Source of the DNA: Escherichia coli
GTDB taxonomy: Bacteria; Pseudomonadota; Gammaproteobacteria; Enterobacterales; Enterobacteriaceae
Length of the DNA: 64,000 nt
Strand: one strand, 5' to 3'
Assembly (NCBI RefSeq): GCF_050920415.1
Contig: NZ_CP169309.1
Shown here: positions 21,023-51,633 of the stretch, piece after piece
Layout of the letters: every line of letters starts with the position of its first letter
Position numbering within the stretch: position 1 is the stretch's first letter
Program-made: the position numbers and the translations under genes
Notes under the pieces: model-generated
The model's database searches: none
The model's input: only the letters and a program-made list of their open reading frames with translations
Told to the model about the DNA's origin: nothing

Positions 21023-22267
21023 TTAACACAATCGTTTTTCGATCCAGCTCGTGATTTCCTGAAGACCTTTGTCAAAATTCCGATACACCGGATTAAATGG
21101 AATCTCTAACAATTTACCATCAGCAGATGATGAGGTGATTAAGCGTGAGTCCTCTTCCGGGCTGAACGGATCGTTCTTCCAGTAGCCTGATAACATTGGC
21201 GTTGGGCAGCGACGGCCCAGCAATCCTTGCACTTTTAATGAATAACGATTCAGTTCCACACGCAACGCTTCATCGGAAGCATCATGCATCCCCAAACGAC
21301 TCGCCAGAACGTCAAGATACATTTCCGGCACCTGTTGCTGGCACTTAAAATCACTCAACAGGGTATGAACTACTGGACCAAGACAAGCAACCGCTTTCAG
21401 ACGCGGCGATTCAAGATATGCCAGACGCACAGCAACGTTAGCGCCAAAACGGAAACCAAAGGCCGCGACACGGGTGTGATCCACCCACGGGACGTTAGGC
21501 AGCGCCTTTAAGACGTGCTGATGCAACAGGCTGGAGTCCTGAGTGAGCTTCCATTTTGAAGAAAAGCCCACCGACGGCATATCAATAGTCAGCATCGCAA
21601 TGCCGCGCGGGGCAAAATAACGTTCATACAGACTGTAATAATCCGTCTGCATCGCATCCAGACCACCACACATTAATACCGTCGGGAACGGGCCATCGCC
21701 TTTCGGCATATGCAAAAAGCCGGTGATGGGCGCACCGCCTGGTACGGTAAACTCCATCTGCCGCATCGTGCCCGGCAGACGTTGGGCGGCCTCTTCATAG
21801 GCACGGTTTGACAAAGCCTGCGCTTGCTCGGCCAGGTCATCCCCTTTCAGATGAGGATAGGCGGCAATGTTGTACAACGTGGCCGCATGCAGCCAGTGAC
21901 GACCACTGAGTTGTGGATCTTCTTCCGCACAAGCTTTTTGTTGCCACACCATCGCCTGGGTGGCCCATTCATAAATCCAGTTGCCGCCGCGGTAGCCAAT
22001 CACCGTATCGTATAAATCATCGTCGGTACGTTCAGCATCGCTCATCACAATACGCGCCTGAACGTCGAGGATTTCACGTGGGTCAATGCCGCGCCAGATC
22101 CACATCAGACGGTTTATCATGCGATACCAGTGGGGGATGGTTTTACCATCAAGGGCCGACTGCACAGGCGGTTGTGCGCCGTGATTAAAGCGGCGGACTA
22201 GCGTCGAGGTTTCAGGATGTTTAAAGCGGGGTTTGAACAGGGTTTCGCTCAGGTTTGCCTGTGTCAT
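21023..22267 (-). CDS. frsA: Esterase FrsA
   Basis: 414 aa alpha/beta hydrolase; synteny crl-frsA-gpt. Confidence 0.9.
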
Positions 22268-22358: not shown

Positions 22359-22817
22359 TTAGCGACCGGAGATTGGCGGGACGAATACGACGCCCATATC
22401 CCACGGTTGTTCAATCCAGGTATCTTGTGGGATATCAACAACATAATCATCAACCAGCGGACGACCTGCCGGTTTAGCGAAGATGGTGACAAAGTGCGCT
22501 TTTGGATACATTTCACGAATCGCAACCGCAGTACCGCCGGTATCCACCAGATCATCAATAACGATGAAGCCTTCGCCATCGCCTTCTGCGCGTTTCAGCA
22601 CTTTAAGCTCGCGCTGGTTGTCGTGATCGTAGCTGGAAATACAAACGGTATCGACATGACGAATACCCAGTTCACGCGCCAGTAACGCACCCGGTACCAG
22701 ACCGCCACGGCTTACGGCAATAATGCCTTTCCATTGTTCAGAAGGCATCAGTCGGCTTGCGAGTTTACGTGCATGGATCTGCAACATGTCCCAGGTGACG
22801 ATGTATTTTTCGCTCAT
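22359..22817 (-). CDS. gpt: Xanthine-guanine phosphoribosyltransferase
   Basis: 152 aa, PRPP-binding motif ([11 protein letters not shown]). Confidence 0.95.
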
Positions 22818-23077: not shown

Positions 23078-24535
23078 GTGTCTGAACTGTCTCAATTATC
23101 TCCACAGCCGCTGTGGGATATTTTTGCCAAAATCTGTTCTATTCCTCACCCGTCCTATCATGAAGAGCAACTCGCTGAATACATTGTTGGTTGGGCAAAA
23201 GAGAAAGGTTTCCATGTCGAACGCGATCAGGTGGGTAATATCCTGATTCGTAAACCTGCTACCGCAGGTATGGAAAATCGTAAACCAGTCGTCTTGCAGG
23301 CCCACCTCGATATGGTGCCGCAGAAAAATAACGATACCGTGCACGATTTCACTAAAGATCCTATCCAGCCTTATATTGATGGCGAATGGGTTAAAGCGCG
23401 CGGTACCACGCTGGGCGCGGATAACGGCATTGGTATGGCCTCTGCACTGGCGGTTCTGGCTGACGAAAACGTGGTTCACGGCCCGCTGGAAGTGCTGCTA
23501 ACCATGACCGAAGAAGCCGGTATGGACGGGGCGTTCGGCTTACAGAGCAACTGGTTGCAGGCTGACATTCTGATTAACACCGACTCCGAAGAAGAAGGTG
23601 AAATCTACATGGGTTGTGCTGGGGGGATCGACTTCACCTCCAACCTGCATTTAGATCGTGAAGCCGTTCCGGCTGGTTTTGAAACCTTCAAATTAACCTT
23701 AAAAGGTCTGAAAGGCGGTCACTCCGGCGGTGAAATCCACGTTGGCCTGGGTAACGCGAACAAACTGCTGGTGCGCTTCCTGGCGGGACATGCAGAAGAA
23801 CTGGACCTGCGTCTTATCGATTTCAACGGCGGCACACTGCGTAACGCCATCCCGCGTGAAGCCTTTGCGACCATTGCTGTCGCAGCTGATAAAGTCGACG
23901 CGCTGAAAACGCTGGTGAATACCTATCAGGACATCCTGAAAAACGAGCTGGCAGAGAAAGAGAAAAATCTGGCCTTGTTGCTGGACTCTGTTGCGAACGA
24001 TAAAGCTGCCCTGATTGCGAAATCTCGCGATACCTTTATTCGTCTGTTGAACGCCACCCCTAACGGTGTGATCCGCAACTCCGACGTAGCAAAAGGCGTG
24101 GTTGAAACCTCACTGAACGTCGGTGTCGTGACCATGACCGACAACAACGTAGAAATTCACTGCCTGATCCGTTCTCTGATCGACAGCGGTAAAGACTACG
24201 TGGTGAGCATGCTGGATTCGCTGGGTAAACTGGCAGGCGCGAAAACAGAAGCGAAAGGCGCATATCCTGGCTGGCAGCCGGACGCTAACTCCCCGGTGAT
24301 GCATCTGGTACGCGAAACCTATCAGCGTCTGTTCAACAAGACGCCGAACATCCAGATTATCCACGCGGGTCTGGAATGTGGTCTGTTTAAAAAGCCGTAT
24401 CCGGAAATGGACATGGTTTCTATCGGGCCAACCATTACCGGTCCACACTCTCCGGATGAGCAAGTTCACATCGAAAGCGTAGGCCATTACTGGACACTGC
24501 TGACTGAACTGCTGAAAGAAATTCCGGCGAAGTAA
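23078..24535 (+). CDS. pepD: Cytosol non-specific dipeptidase (aminoacyl-histidine dipeptidase)
   Basis: 485 aa, recognisable PepD sequence. Confidence 0.95.
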   Translation: MSELSQLSPQPLWDIFAKICSIPHPSYHEEQLAEYIVGWAKEKGFHVERDQVGNILIRKPATAGMENRKPVVLQAHLDMVPQKNNDTVHDFTKDPIQPYIDGEWVKARGTTLGADNGIGMASALAVLADENVVHGPLEVLLTMTEEAGMDGAFGLQSNWLQADILINTDSEEEGEIYMGCAGGIDFTSNLHLDREAVPAGFETFKLTLKGLKGGHSGGEIHVGLGNANKLLVRFLAGHAEELDLRLIDFNGGTLRNAIPREAFATIAVAADKVDALKTLVNTYQDILKNELAEKEKNLALLLDSVANDKAALIAKSRDTFIRLLNATPNGVIRNSDVAKGVVETSLNVGVVTMTDNNVEIHCLIRSLIDSGKDYVVSMLDSLGKLAGAKTEAKGAYPGWQPDANSPVMHLVRETYQRLFNKTPNIQIIHAGLECGLFKKPYPEMDMVSIGPTITGPHSPDEQVHIESVGHYWTLLTELLKEIPAK

Positions 24536-27488: not shown

Positions 27489-27941
27489 TTAGTGTTGCGG
27501 TTTATATCGCATATGAAAATTAGTAAACCACGCTCCCCGGCATTCAACGCGCTGCTGCTTAACTGTCTGAAAACCATAACGTTCAAAAAAGGGTTTTGCG
27601 GTTATGCTGGCGTCCACCGTAAGTTCGGATTCAGACTTAATCAAAGGTTTTAACAAAGCGCTGGCAACCCCACGGCGGGTATATTCAGGGTCAACAAATA
27701 ACATATCGATATAATGTTCAATGCGGGAAATAAAACCAACCGGTTGTGCATTAATCACAGCAACCCGCACTTGTGATTTCGCGAGTTTCTCTTTCCATCG
27801 ATGTTCATCAATCTGCGCCCAGGCGGCAATTTGTTGTGGTGAATAATGCTGACTGGCGGTCATCGTAACCGCTCTAATAAAAATAGCGCATAGTTGCTGA
27901 AAATCGCCAGGCTGATAGTCTCTTATTTGTATATTATTCAT
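27489..27941 (-). CDS. yafP: GNAT-family N-acetyltransferase
   Basis: 150 aa; start overlaps the dinB stop. Confidence 0.85.
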
Positions 27942-28993
27942 AATCCCAACACCAGTTGTCTTTCCATTTGCGGATCCAGCAACGTCACATGCAGCCCCAC
28001 CAGCCGCACACCGCGCCCGCCACGGCGTTCATCCCAGGTTTTACGCGCAGTGGCGATCAAGTCAGCTTTATTCAGCCGCGGCCAGACGTGTTCCTGAGTG
28101 GTTTGCTGAAAATCGTCGAACTTTAATTTCACCCCCTGGCGGGCAATCAGCAAATCAGGTTTTACCTTTGCCAGACGGCGTTCAAGTTCCGGATACAACC
28201 GCTCGATAATCGCTTCACATTCAGACCAATGATGAATATCTTCCGCCATCGTGCGTTCCACACCAACGGATTTTCGCAACCTTTCGCTGTTAACGTCGCG
28301 CTCGTCAATGCCCTGGCTACGCTCCCACAAAATGCGGCCAAATTTGCCAAAGCGTTTAAGCAACGTCACCAGATCACACTTTTGTACATCGCCACAGGTT
28401 CGTAGCCCCATCGCTTCCAGTTTTGCCGCCGAGACTTTGCCGACACCGGGAATTTTTGCCAGCGGTAAGGTTTGCAGAAATGCCGGAACTTCTGCCGGCG
28501 TAATCACAAACTGACCGTTGGGTTTATTCATGTCTGAGGCGATTTTGGCGAGAAACTTGACCGGCGCAACGCCCGCAGACGCCGTCAGTTGCAGCTCGTT
28601 GAAGATCGTCTGGCGGATTTCCTGAGCGATAAGGGTCGCAGAGCCGTGGCAATGTACGCTGTCGGTGACGTCGAGATAAGCTTCATCCAGCGACAACGGC
28701 TCAATACGCGATGTGTAGCGAGAGAAGATTTCGCGGATATGATTTGACGCTTCTTTGTAGGCGTCAAAGCGCCCTGGAAGCAAGGTGAGATGCGGACACA
28801 GTTTGAGCGCCATGCCGGTTGGCATTGCGCTACGCACGCCAAATTTACGCGCGGGATAATTGGCGGTGCTGATCACCCCCCGGCGTTCGCGGCTGCCGCC
28901 AATAGCAATAGGGATATCGCGCAGGGCGGGATTGTCGCGCATCTCCACCGCGGCGAAAAAGCAGTCCATATCCACATGAATGATTTTACGCAT
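27938..28993 (-). CDS. dinB: DNA polymerase IV
   Basis: 351 aa, Y-family polymerase N-terminus ([22 protein letters not shown]...). Confidence 0.95.
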
Positions 28994-29063
28994 TGCTCAC
29001 CTCTCAATACTGGTAAAGTATACAGTGATTTCAGAGTTTGAGAAATGCGTAAAGATTCAGCAT

Positions 29064-47820: not shown

Positions 47821-48558
47821 ATGAGGTTTCAATTTTGCAGGCGGAAGTTGTATTTCCTCCTGGCGCTGGCCTTACCGGGCTACGCCGCCGTCCATCCCGT
47901 GCAACATAGCGCGCGGGAACAAATCAACGCCCAGGTGCTGAATGCCGCGAGCCAGCAGATTGAATCGCTGGCGCAACAGCGGCAGTGGCATGACTATCGC
48001 TACACCTTTAAGGTCTACATTCCCTCGCAGATTGCGACCGCCGCGCCCTGCGCTACGGCCCCCGGCGTCACGCTGACGTCGCCTGCGGAAATCGCTCTCA
48101 ACCGGATGAACTTCACCGTCAGTTGCCCGCAAAGCTGGCAGATGAACGTTGCGGTGCGCCCGGATGTTCTGGTGCCGGTGGTGATGGCGAAGTCACTGGT
48201 TGCCCGCGATACGCCGCTCACGGCAAATGATGTGGAGCTGAAGCCCTACAACGTCAGCGCCCAGCGGCGGGATGTGCTGATGGATCTCAATGAAGCGATT
48301 GGTTTAAGCAGCAAACATGCCCTGCAACCAGGCAGGCCGCTTACCAAAGAAGAACTGGTTTCGCCAGTGCTGATCGAGCGCGATCAGCCGGTGATGATTG
48401 TTTACCAGAGCGCGGGGATCACCGCCTCGATGCCCGGCGTGGCGCTGAAAAATGGTCGCAAAGGGGAAATGGTGAAAGTACGTAACGCCAGCAGCCAGCG
48501 GGTCATTAGCGCGATGGTGGCCGAAAGCGGCGTGGTGACAACGGTAAGCGCGGAGTAA
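47821..48558 (+). CDS. lfgA: P-ring assembly chaperone FlgA-like
   Basis: Signal peptide and SAF-type C-terminal domain; divergent from lfgB; start at second ATG. Confidence 0.75.
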   Translation: MRFQFCRRKLYFLLALALPGYAAVHPVQHSAREQINAQVLNAASQQIESLAQQRQWHDYRYTFKVYIPSQIATAAPCATAPGVTLTSPAEIALNRMNFTVSCPQSWQMNVAVRPDVLVPVVMAKSLVARDTPLTANDVELKPYNVSAQRRDVLMDLNEAIGLSSKHALQPGRPLTKEELVSPVLIERDQPVMIVYQSAGITASMPGVALKNGRKGEMVKVRNASSQRVISAMVAESGVVTTVSAE

Positions 48559-48746
48559 TTTGCTTCGATACCGCGTAGCATATGTATGACTATCTCCCAA
48601 TATTATGACTTTCTGACAAATTTCATCGTGTCTTTTGGATAATTATTGAGCACTCAATCACTACTGTTTAAATATCCAGATGGTAACTATTTCATCTGGG
48701 TCAAATGAGTGATACTGTATCACCAATAAGACCTATGGGGGATGCT

Positions 48747-50171
48747 ATGTCTGAATTTGAATTACTCGTGAAAGATCTTCTTTTAAAATCAGAAGAAGAC
48801 GAGAAAAAGCGACAAGAAAAAGATCGAGAATTAATTTCAAAGGTCCTTGAAATCTATGATCAAAAATATGTTGCAGAACTCTTACGAAAACTAGGAAAAA
48901 ATGAATGGAGCAGAGAAACACTTAACCGTTGGATAAATGGTAAGTGCAATCCTAAGCAATTAACTTCTGCGGAGGAAACTTTACTCCGCAAGATGCTTCC
49001 AGAACCTCCTGAACATCATCCTAACTACACATTTCGTTTTATTGATTTATTCGCAGGGATTGGTGGTATTCGTAAAGGTTTCGAAAACATTGGTGGACAG
49101 TGTGTTTTTACCAGCGAATGGAATAAAGAAGCGGTAAGAACCTACAAAGCTAATTGGTTTAATGATGAACTAAATCATAAATTTAATCTTGATATACGAG
49201 AAGTCACTTTAAGTGATAGAGATGATGTTTCCGAAGTAGAAGCCTATAATCATATAGACAAAAATATTCCAGATCATGATGTCCTTCTGGCCGGTTTTCC
49301 ATGTCAGCCCTTTAGTCTGGCTGGGGTAAGCAAGAAAAACTCTCTGGGGCGTGCACATGGTTTTGAATGTGAGGCACAAGGAACACTATTTTTTGATGTC
49401 GCTCGGATTATTAAATCAAAAAAACCAGCTATTTTTGTGCTTGAGAATGTGAAAAACCTTAAAAGTCATGATAAAGGTAAGACTTTTAAAGTCATCATGG
49501 AAACACTCGATGAATTAGGATATGAAGTCGCCGATGCTGGTGTTACTGGCTCAGATGATCCCAAAATTATAGATGGAAAACATTTTTTACCCCAACATCG
49601 TGAGCGTATAGTGTTGGTAGGATTTCGTAGAGATCTGAATATTCACAAGGATTTCACGTTACGAAACATTAACCGCTTTTACCCTCAAAACAGGCCAACA
49701 TTTGGTGAATTATTAGATCATGATGTTGACGATAAATATATTTTGACTCCAAGGTTATGGGAATATCTTTACAATTATGCAAAAAAACATGCAGCAAAAG
49801 GCAATGGGTTTGGTTTTGGTTTAGTGGATCCTAAAAATCCAGATAGTATCGCAAGGACTCTGTCTGCTCGTTATCATAAAGATGGCTCTGAAATATTGAT
49901 TGATCGTGGCTGGGATAAGGCTGTCGGTGAAATTGACTTTAGTAATCCAGCGAATCAAGAGCATCGTCCAAGAAGACTGACACCTCACGAATGTGCCAGG
50001 CTAATGGGTTTTGAAAAACCAGGGGGAAGACCTTTTAGAATACCTGTATCGGATACACAAGCCTATAGACAATTTGGGAACTCAGTTGTTGTTCCAGTAT
50101 TTGAAGCTGTAGCAAGATTACTAGAACCATATATACAAAAGGCAGTCAATATGCATATTATTAACGATTAA
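48747..50171 (+). CDS. DNA cytosine-5 methyltransferase, EcoRII/Dcm family (CCWGG specificity predicted)
   Basis: Motifs [30 protein letters not shown]; near-colinear with the M.EcoRII/Dcm sequence as I recall it; GGGGA RBS before the ATG; AT-rich relative to flanks. Confidence 0.9.
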
Positions 50172-50194
50172 TAATAATTAATTTTCACTATTGT

Positions 50195-50217
50195 GAGGCC
50201 TTTTTATTAAAGGCCTC
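50195..50217. terminator. Bidirectional hairpin terminator between the convergent M and R genes
   Basis: gaggccttt-ttatt-aaaggcctc flanked by A/T runs. Confidence 0.5.
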
Positions 50218-50257
50218 TAAATATATAATCATGAGTTTTTACAAGTATGTTTTTATA

Positions 50258-51463
50258 TTATACAAAATCTTCATAAAGCGTTATTAACTGTGTAATAAAA
50301 CCATCTAATGTTAATATTTCCTCCCTGATTTCCTCCGGGTATTTTTTATGAAGAGGGGAAGGTACAACCAAGGTGACACCTTCAGCTCTCATTTCGTTAA
50401 ATTGAGCAACAGAGACACCCTCTTGCAAGGTAAACAAATATATCTTGTTGATTTTATTTGCTTCATTAAGCGCCTGTCGCCACCGATCCTTACATGTTGT
50501 TTTTACAGCAAGCATACGGAGTTTTTCTCTTGGAAAGTGATCATCATGGTAAGCTGCCGCTGATGGGAAAAGAAAATCGGGTTTCTTTTTTCCTTCAGTA
50601 ATACATTGAGTAGCAAAATGATGCAGTCCATGCTCAATAAAAATTTGCTCAAGATGTAGCTCCAGTGATTTCCCGGCTCGAGATTTTCTTCTATTACTAA
50701 CAGAGTTAGCCATAGCTATAAAATCATCTACAGAACCAAATCCTTGACGGATGATGTCCAGTACGTGAATTTCTTCAACCATTAGAAAGAGATCATATTC
50801 AATACGGCGGCGTTCTAAAAGTTGGTCATCTGGACTGGTTACGCCTGTTGGGTAATAACCTGCCGCATATTGGATAATATCTAAGCCAGAAGGAAAACTA
50901 TGTTTCCAGCTTTCCGGAATAACATATTCCTTTTGAGAGATTTTTGGCCTTGATGCGAGTACACCAAGTATTTCACTGGCAGGCCCAAACATTAAAGTTC
51001 CTGGAATGATCTCCCCAACAGCTGATTCCAGTACATCCTCTTCTTCTGGGCTTACACAAACCCATACATCAACACTTTTGCTGTCTCTCCCAGGCTCATG
51101 TTCAAACGCAAGCACAGACAAAGCACCTGTATTTTCCGGATCTTGTAGGGGACTGCCAGCCCCCCACCGAGTGATACGTTTTTCATTTCTTGTTTGCCCG
51201 AAATACTTATTATTGTAGTAAATAGCGCGAACCTCACTGTCTACACATTCATGAGAGGAATAAGTTGCGCGCAATAAAACCGAAGGATTTTTTTCTGACG
51301 TATGATCTATAGATGGGAAAAGTTCACCGACGATACCGGAAGGGATATATACCCCCACTTGATGCCCTCCTGTTGCACCAGTGTCGTTTGCTGAAAGACG
51401 TTTGATATAGAGATAATTGTTACCACCGACCTTATCAAGCAGCCAATCTTGTAATCCTGACAT
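50258..51463 (-). CDS. Type IIE restriction endonuclease, EcoRII family
   Basis: 401 aa; long conserved blocks matching R.EcoRII as I recall it (YIKRLSANDTGATGGHQVG, RNEKRITRWG, SPLQDPENTGAL, SVSNRRKSRAGKSLELHLE, KPDFLFPS, LRMLAVKTTCKDRWRQ); convergent with the methyltransferase. Confidence 0.85.
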   Translation of the reverse strand: MSGLQDWLLDKVGGNNYLYIKRLSANDTGATGGHQVGVYIPSGIVGELFPSIDHTSEKNPSVLLRATYSSHECVDSEVRAIYYNNKYFGQTRNEKRITRWGAGSPLQDPENTGALSVLAFEHEPGRDSKSVDVWVCVSPEEEDVLESAVGEIIPGTLMFGPASEILGVLASRPKISQKEYVIPESWKHSFPSGLDIIQYAAGYYPTGVTSPDDQLLERRRIEYDLFLMVEEIHVLDIIRQGFGSVDDFIAMANSVSNRRKSRAGKSLELHLEQIFIEHGLHHFATQCITEGKKKPDFLFPSAAAYHDDHFPREKLRMLAVKTTCKDRWRQALNEANKINKIYLFTLQEGVSVAQFNEMRAEGVTLVVPSPLHKKYPEEIREEILTLDGFITQLITLYEDFV

Positions 51464-51633
51464 AAGACATCCTTATTTTTGCATAGTATCCGATTCAGAT
51501 TTTTCCACATATCCATCAGAACGACCAGAACCAACATATCTGAACAAAAAGTAAATATGCGATAACGATTAAAGTTTTGCCGCCTGTTAACCGCTTTACC
51601 GGAGTAACCACCCAATACCGAGACGAGGTTGCG

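Follow-up and report, generated by a model that had tools for sequence, protein, structure and literature searches.

What is the role of the two inverted repeats that precede a DNA methyltransferase gene in an Escherichia coli chromosome (contig NZ_CP169309.1)? We analyzed a stretch of 64,000 nucleotides from this contig (the window, whose numbering is used throughout), in which a restriction-modification (R-M) system of the EcoRII family is encoded by a methyltransferase gene (M) and a convergent endonuclease gene (R). The original prediction was that two dyad symmetries just upstream of M could be operators through which the methyltransferase regulates its own transcription and sets the M:R balance. 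Our analysis suggests, with a probability of roughly 0.7, that positions 48662-48746 form the promoter-operator of the M gene, that the second dyad is the core of a self-operator mediating self-repression, and that the first dyad is non-functional as a dyad.

Both dyads are present where they were predicted. Dyad 1 (48676-48699) consists of CCAGATG (48676-48682) and CATCTGG (48693-48699) with 10 nucleotides between them, and dyad 2 (48709-48723) reads GTGATA-CTG-TATCAC. They do lie upstream of the methyltransferase start, ATG 48747 (MSEFELL), which is backed by a Shine-Dalgarno sequence, GGGGGA (48737-48742, plus strand; GGAGG in most homologs), and by the same start in the Prokaryotic Genome Annotation Pipeline (PGAP) annotation of an identical E. 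coli record. On their own, the bare dyads are only mildly above chance. A perfect inverted repeat with 7-nucleotide arms occurs in 5.3% of dinucleotide shuffles of 48676-48746, and such a repeat together with a second 6-nucleotide dyad occurs in 0.7%. Within the coding DNA of the R-M island, 28 of 265 segments of 71 nucleotides contain a 7-nucleotide dyad and 10 contain both dyads. The functional case therefore comes from comparison with homologous loci and not from the raw dyads. Two features had been missed: dyad 2 extends to a palindrome of 41 bp, and a CTGT-N8-CCAG box takes in the left arm of dyad 1.

The loci that we compared were gathered by similarity of the M protein and not by motif. 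They comprise 29 loci from one genome per species, 38 loci from viral contigs, 80 from metagenomes, and a few from plasmids and E. coli genomes; individual loci are referred to by handles such as L013. A phage collection scanned to widen this sample yielded nothing, and the viral and metagenome scans returned mostly close relatives. The upstream set contains 77 distinct sequences, and counts at individual positions are given out of 75. A protein-anchored alignment covers 22 enterobacterial loci, of which the 16 restriction-linked ones were used for pairwise identities. Promoters were called in the 29 loci with a simple sigma-70 position weight matrix (PWM).

Dyad 2 is the center of an imperfect 41-bp palindrome (48696-48736; CTGGGTCAAATGAGTGA-TACTGTA-TCACCAATAAGACCTAT), which we propose as the operator of the methyltransferase's putative N-terminal helix-turn-helix (HTH). 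Its GTGA-N7-TCAC core is invariant in the 22-locus alignment, where the invariant positions are CTGGGT (48696-48701), GAGTGATA (48707-48714), T48718, TCAC (48720-48723), and CC (48732-48733). The palindrome is found upstream of EcoRII-family methyltransferase genes in Enterobacterales, Alteromonas, Comamonadaceae, and Oligoflexia, and the dyad 2 core occurs in Gammaproteobacteria, Betaproteobacteria, and Oligoflexia. The arms match at 17 of 17 positions in Oligoflexia (L028; CTGGGTTAAATGAGTGA-CAATGAA-TCACTCATTTAACCCAG), at 16 of 17 in Comamonadaceae (L024), at 14 of 17 in both Alteromonas (L021) and Rheinheimera (L026), and at 13 of 17 in the plasmid-borne EcoRII system.

Sequence conservation separates the palindrome sharply from its surroundings. 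Mean pairwise identity is 0.86 for the palindrome (48695-48736) and 0.88 for the upstream box (48662-48681), against 0.61 for the 13 bp between them, 0.30 further upstream, and 0.39 at four-fold synonymous sites of M. Because both non-coding blocks lie far above synonymous sites, they must be under purifying selection. The palindrome motif is unique in the window, where none is expected, and no second operator copy was found there. Chance alone can generate dyads like these, which occur in 5-10% of comparable segments, but chance does not keep non-coding blocks 86-88% identical or preserve a motif across bacterial classes. For dyad 2 and its palindrome this conservation refutes a chance origin, and we give next to no weight to the idea that the dyads are without function.

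The palindrome overlaps the predicted promoter of M. A predicted extended -10 element, TGaTACTGT (48710-48718, plus strand; hexamer TACTGT at 48713-48718), occupies the center of dyad 2. The predicted -35 element, TTTCAT (48690-48695, plus strand), precedes it with a 17-bp spacer and overlaps the right arm of dyad 1; an alternative hexamer, TTCATC (48691-48696), would give a 16-bp spacer. Transcription would start at 48725-48726 (plus strand), 7-8 nucleotides past the -10, leaving a leader of about 21 nucleotides. Relative to this predicted start, the palindrome spans about -30 to +11.

This promoter register recurs across loci. The best sigma-70 match falls in one common register in 24 of the 29 loci; the -10 begins at position +4 of GTGA in 21 of them and at +2 in three more. 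Furthermore, the nominal spacer of dyad 2 is itself conserved, with T at +4 in 73 of 75 sequences, A at +5 in 72, and T at +9 in 71, while the bases between vary. These are the three critical positions of a -10 element, which is consistent with a -10 placed inside dyad 2. The TG of the invariant GTGA provides the extended -10. The -35 adjoining the 5' edge of the palindrome keeps its TT (48690-48691), conserved at 1.3 bits among variable neighbors. At the predicted start, C+16 is present in 59 of 75 sequences and A+17 in 71. Individual loci offer recognizable promoters, such as a -10 of TATAAT in L013, TTGCCT-17-TAAAGT in L018, TTGACA-17-GATGAT in L026, and TAGACA-17-GATAGT in L021. Other arrangements were considered and set aside: a -35 of TTTAAA with a -10 of TTTCAT, or a -10 of TCAAAT in the left arm, is inconsistent across loci, and TAAAAT in the left arm is used by L024 alone.

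The same symmetry could in principle act as RNA. A hairpin of the 5' leader could control translation or mRNA stability: stems of GGGUC/GACCU and GUGAUA/UAUCAC can form just 5' of the Shine-Dalgarno sequence, with a folding energy of -14.6 kcal/mol. There is also slight covariation between the arms. Outside GTGA and TCAC, a mean of 8.0 of 13 positions are complementary, compared with 3.5 in random sequence and 7.73 when arms are re-paired between loci, a small excess (p=0.001). However, the folding z-score is only -0.49, 59 of 200 shuffles fold equally well or better, and there is no Rfam match. The arms are conserved as sequence and not through compensatory change. Moreover, with the predicted -10 in the loop and transcription predicted to begin in the right arm, the left arm would go untranscribed. 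We therefore regard an RNA element as very improbable and retain the reading of the palindrome as a DNA operator.

A coding explanation fares no better. ATG 48705, the start of the mechanically called open reading frame (ORF), is in frame with M in both the window and plasmid EcoRII, and an ATG is conserved at this position in about 70 of 75 sequences. The conserved block might then extend the N-terminus by 14 codons or encode a leader peptide. Among 57 ATG-bearing variants, however, only 30 are in frame and open, while 20 are out of frame and 6 carry an in-frame stop. Many third codon positions are invariant, while codon 4 varies freely at its second position. L018, L020, L022, and L026 lack the ATG, and the strong Shine-Dalgarno sequence serves ATG 48747. 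We reject ATG 48705 as the start of M, read this ATG as part of the left arm of the operator (AAATGA), and find it scarcely credible that the block is coding.

The likely reader of the palindrome is the methyltransferase itself. The N-terminus of M has the sequence pattern of an XRE-like HTH, and its AlphaFold model has a predicted local distance difference test (pLDDT) score of 76. The segment W[SCT]RE[TSR][LIV]NRW is kept in every palindrome-bearing locus, down to 63% identity of the M protein. In contrast, E. coli Dcm has WSAAILKRAL in this helix and the orphan methylase of plasmid R27 has WSRASLIRQI, and neither gene is preceded by the palindrome. This co-occurrence of helix and palindrome favors the view that the methylase recognizes the palindrome with its own HTH. 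Dcm, a solitary CCWGG methylase of the dcm-vsr pair, is otherwise similar to M: its catalytic region is 69% identical, and it carries DNA_meth_N by Pfam and by PDB entry 3me5. This entry is a cytosine-specific methyltransferase, alignable with K-12-type Dcm, that M matches with an E value of 6e-212. The difference lies in the changed residues of the recognition helix and in the upstream DNA.

Both the palindrome and the SOS-like box are absent upstream of K-12-type dcm (L033:1100-1272) and in plasmid R27 (L155:3290-3429). About 100 nucleotides upstream of dcm, in the 3' end of yedJ, the sequence GGTGATAGATGCGTTTTCA might be a relic of the operator core. Two protein-database searches with the HTH profile returned almost solely gene fragments, mostly short stand-alone DNA_meth_N ORFs; the two contexts that we inspected (L157:3940-4261 and L159:3900-4300) were a decayed gene and a contig end, respectively. 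The decayed methylase gene in L157 still has a palindrome (CTGGGTTAAATGAGTGA-TAATAAA-TCACACATTTGAC) and lacks the SOS-like box and a nuclease.

We suggest the following mechanism. The methyltransferase would bind the 41-bp palindrome through its putative N-terminal XRE-like HTH, probably as a dimer. With the extended -10 in the center of the palindrome and the -35 abutting its left edge, a protein covering about -30 to +11 would exclude RNA polymerase, and M would thus repress its own gene by negative autoregulation. We show here, by comparing sequences, the anatomy of the region, its conservation, and its co-occurrence with the HTH; we infer the binding of the methyltransferase to the palindrome and the position of the transcription start. 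The mode of repression is taken by analogy from published work on M.EcoRII, SsoII, and Ecl18kI.

Of these, M.EcoRII is the closest relative. The M proteins are 84% identical and the R proteins 68%, the genes are convergent in both, and the upstream DNA can be aligned from the box to the ATG. Unlike the plasmid system, the window copy is chromosomal, in an E. coli flagellar cluster, and its box and -35 are one base further apart. Its operator sequence, promoter register, and SOS-like box are defined by sequence comparison only. In line with the prediction of a self-regulating methyltransferase, the domains of M and R fit an EcoRII-type system, and reviews report that M.EcoRII carries a fused N-terminal repressor (HTH) domain, that its operator overlaps its promoter, and that it represses its own gene (PMC3874152; PMC12707154; PMC3978073). 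The proposed consequence for the M:R balance is an overstatement, as M.EcoRII is reported to leave the endonuclease gene unaffected (PMC3978073; PMC12707154).

Other systems share parts of this design. MspI, ScrFIA, and LlaJI belong, along with EcoRII and SsoII/Ecl18kI, to the R-M systems that are autoregulated by their methyltransferase. M.SsoII and M.Ecl18kI are also C5 methyltransferases with an N-terminal HTH, and they bind a palindrome over their own promoter, with a large footprint (48-52 bp), and exclude RNA polymerase (PMC2760811; PMC3978073). Their N-terminal domain belongs to another family, however, and their operator is a 15-bp sequence (AGGACAAATTGTCCT) as opposed to a 41-bp palindrome with a GTGA-N7-TCAC core. 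Furthermore, the SsoII genes are divergent and binding of M indirectly activates R, whereas the window genes are convergent and R is expected to be unaffected. Controller (C) proteins likewise place an XRE/lambda-repressor-like HTH on palindromic DNA in an R-M promoter. They differ in being separate small proteins that act at duplicated C-boxes and both activate and repress the C and R genes, while the putative HTH in the window is fused to the methylase, faces a single long palindrome, and would control only M. For M.EcoRII itself, Som and Friedman reportedly described in 1994 a DNase I footprint of 47-49 bp immediately upstream of the coding region, a position that would match that of the palindrome.

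Dyad 1 is best explained as the incidental product of two elements that lie next to each other. The left arm takes its CCAG from the right half-site of the LexA-type box (48662-48681), and the right arm combines the -35 with the CTGG that forms the left edge of the palindrome. Since CCAG is the reverse complement of CTGG, a dyad arises automatically. Across 46 distinct variants, its arms pair no better than arms re-paired between loci, whether measured by contiguous pairs (3.91 versus 3.81, p=0.13) or by complementary positions (5.87 versus 5.91 of 9). Most homologs retain only CCAGA and TCTGG, and 11 of the 46 variants have ACAG, which is the better half-site for LexA, without a compensating change. 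In addition, palindrome and HTH are retained in L013 and L015-L017, which have no restriction gene, but there homology ends exactly upstream of TCTGGG and the left arm of dyad 1 is absent. On this negative permutation result and its loss from restriction-less loci, we reject dyad 1 as a selected hairpin or operator.

These observations also bear on the proposal that dyads 1 and 2 are two separate methyltransferase operators that together set the M:R ratio. Both dyads exist, most restriction-linked loci conserve CCAGA and likewise TCTGG, and each of these is one base off the CCWGG target, which might allow a second, weak contact with the catalytic domain. Nevertheless, the lack of covariation in dyad 1, the loci that manage without its left arm, and the reported indifference of the endonuclease gene to M.EcoRII make two operators improbable. 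The operator claim is thus supported for dyad 2, as the invariant core of a conserved palindrome over the predicted -10, and falls for dyad 1. We prefer a single self-operator centered on dyad 2.

The resemblance to CCWGG merits mention in its own right. The outer ends of the palindrome, TCTGG (48695-48699) and CCAGA, are one base off this target, as is the end of the box at 48676-48680. A true CCTGG is found at the corresponding position in L020 and L022 (right end) and in L023 (left end). No CCWGG site was found in 48329-49995. The outer ends may serve as pseudo-substrate contacts for the catalytic domain or as a methylation-sensitive element.

Three points weigh against a self-operator. The promoter and transcription start are PWM predictions. 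With 11 of 17 matching positions, the palindrome arms in the window are the least symmetric copy that we saw. Finally, every Foldseek match of the N-terminal model is individually non-significant (E>1), although nearly all of them are lambda-repressor-like HTH domains: POU-specific domains, C.Esp1396I, C.BclI, Aca proteins, TP901-1 CI, and XRE regulators.

The second conserved block is a LexA-type SOS box (TACTGTTTAAATATCCAGAT, 48662-48681), with CTGT-N8-CCAG at 48664-48679 and the left arm of dyad 1 inside it. A PWM built from 26 E. coli SOS boxes gives this sequence 21.4 bits, which ranks it first among 63,981 positions in the window and above the dinB box. When dinB and uvrB are dropped from the training set, it scores 20.5 bits, more than 54% of genuine boxes in a leave-one-out comparison; this value was not reached in 2 million random 20-mers (P<5e-7 per position). 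The second match (CACTGTATACTTTACCAGTA, 29008-29027, minus strand) is a genuine dinB box just upstream of an ORF (27938-28993, minus strand) that reads as DinB/DNA polymerase IV, and it serves as a positive control within the window. In the PWM scan of the window, no SOS-like box was found near the R gene. A third match (AGCTGGAAATACAAACGGTA, 22631-22650, 14 bits) lies between ORFs at 21023-22267 (minus strand) and 23078-24535 (plus strand).

The box is conserved upstream of M in other species. It lies 23-28 nucleotides upstream of GTGA and is the top PWM match of the whole locus of about 7 kb in 19 of 20 box-bearing loci from genomes, plasmids, and the window. Its CTG and CAG ends persist while the interior differs, as in Rahnella (L018, TACTGTACACATATACAGAT), Alteromonas (L021, TGCTGTCTAAATATACAGTA), and Rheinheimera (L026, TACTGTATAAAAGATCAGAT). 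Of 55 different restriction-linked upstream variants, 51 have the box at a fixed offset with a score of 13 bits or more, and in one the box is cut by a rearrangement. By contrast, 10 of 12 restriction-less variants have no box; the other two are L129 and L019, the latter with R deleted at the same flagellar site as in the window.

Box-bearing loci include three restriction architectures: convergent EcoRII systems, M-vsr-R operons with a nuclease that has only EcoRII-C (L021 and L026), and an M-vsr-R operon with a non-homologous nuclease of the MvaI/BcnI family (L018). In the M-vsr-R operons, which have both the box and the palindrome (L018:3001-6370, L021:3010-6126, and L026:3010-6090), the same promoter would control R besides M. 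Counted by lineage, the association of box with nuclease is about 3/3 versus 0/7 (roughly p=0.01), the sequence counts being phylogenetically non-independent. The real correlate of the box could be mobility and not the nuclease.

The likeliest explanation, at slightly better than even odds, is that host LexA binds the box and makes the methylase promoter responsive to DNA damage. The box has the 20-bp CTGT-N8-(A/C)CAG form of E. coli LexA boxes such as those of dinB and uvrB, and its score falls in the upper half of genuine boxes. It differs from them in belonging to a mobile R-M unit and not to a repair gene, and in lying upstream of the -35 instead of over the core promoter. One possible route is that LexA excludes the C-terminal domain of the RNA polymerase alpha subunit (alpha-CTD) from an UP-like, AT-rich stretch; AAAA is conserved at about -43 to -40 in most homologs.

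Several observations count against a role for LexA. The box covers about -64 to -44 and, with 8 bp between its downstream end and the predicted -35, does not overlap the core promoter. LexA repression from a position upstream of the -35 is unusual. This position weakens the case for classical repression, although LexA could still bind. A conserved alternative promoter with its -10 in the box was not found among 63 upstream flanks. We set aside, as a conserved feature, an upstream promoter with its -10, TTAAAT, inside the box (TTGAGC-16-TTAAAT in the window), because -35-like hexamers are unenriched in these unrelated flanks (p=0.08). Three of the 55 restriction-linked variants score just 8.5-11.6 bits, with CAG changed to CAT, and the training list of the SOS matrix is approximate. 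Friedman and Som are said to have ascribed the induction of M.EcoRII by 5-azacytidine to autogenous control and not to SOS. The searchable papers yielded no link between LexA and an EcoRII-family promoter.

The box may instead be an AT-rich, UP-element-like part of the promoter or the site of a factor from a mobile element. Its position is where alpha-CTD binds, its center is AT-rich and followed by the conserved AAAA, and both the CAT variants and the missing promoter within the box would fit such a role. Yet its score of 20.5-21.4 bits exceeds half of genuine boxes, and its CTG and CAG ends are conserved despite differing interiors in L018, L021, and L026. Moreover, the alternation of ACAG and CCAG is what LexA tolerates, and occurrence in many unrelated genomic contexts favors a host factor. 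We consider a non-LexA identity unlikely, though it is by no means negligible.

Taken together, the two elements point tentatively, at somewhat less than even odds, to a methylase promoter with two inputs: a self-operator over the extended -10 and a host LexA box upstream of the -35, the box being kept only with a nuclease and absent from orphan relatives. If so, DNA damage would raise protective methylation. The trigger could include cleavage of under-methylated DNA by the system's own nuclease, or the SOS response on entry into a new cell. Such a circuit would give type II systems a parallel to the restriction alleviation known from type I systems.

Autorepression by M.EcoRII was already known, and an operator in a chromosomal homolog is an ordinary confirmation of it. 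The present analysis adds a definition of the operator at the sequence level (a 41-bp palindrome with a GTGA-N7-TCAC core), a candidate explanation of repression through the extended -10 embedded in the operator core, and a protein correlate, the RETLNRW helix, which is lost along with the operator in Dcm. Less expected is that a conserved LexA-type box goes together with the presence of a restriction gene. Should LexA bind it, a widespread plasmid-borne type II system would be wired to the SOS response, which is relevant to how these systems keep from killing the host following DNA damage or when they enter a new cell.

The genes downstream are those of an EcoRII-family R-M system, which they match in domain make-up and convergent layout. 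The M gene (48747-50171, plus strand) encodes 474 amino acids with a C5 DNA methylase domain (Pfam PF00145, 4e-79) and DNA_meth_N, the putative XRE-like HTH (PF18284, 2e-26). The R gene (50258-51463, minus strand) encodes 401 amino acids with the EcoRII-N effector domain (PF09217, 1e-59) and the EcoRII-C catalytic domain (PF09019, 8e-71). We infer CCWGG specificity for M and R only from their identity to the plasmid EcoRII proteins.

The R-M island (48564-51549, about 2,986 bp) is AT-rich, with 36-40% GC, and is inserted directly after the flgA stop codon, between flgA and flgM, in a Flag-2-type flagellar cluster. The flgA-flgM stretch is present in 1,278 of 5,426 complete E. coli genomes, and just 28 of those 1,278 have the island. 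At the DNA level, the island shares about 71% identity with the classical EcoRII system of plasmids, which is found in about 3,900 PLSDB plasmids. Homology to the plasmid DNA begins at about 48660; thus, both dyads lie inside the homologous stretch. The same insertion at the flagellar site, with the endonuclease gene deleted, is found in Escherichia sp. MOD1-EC7003 (L019).

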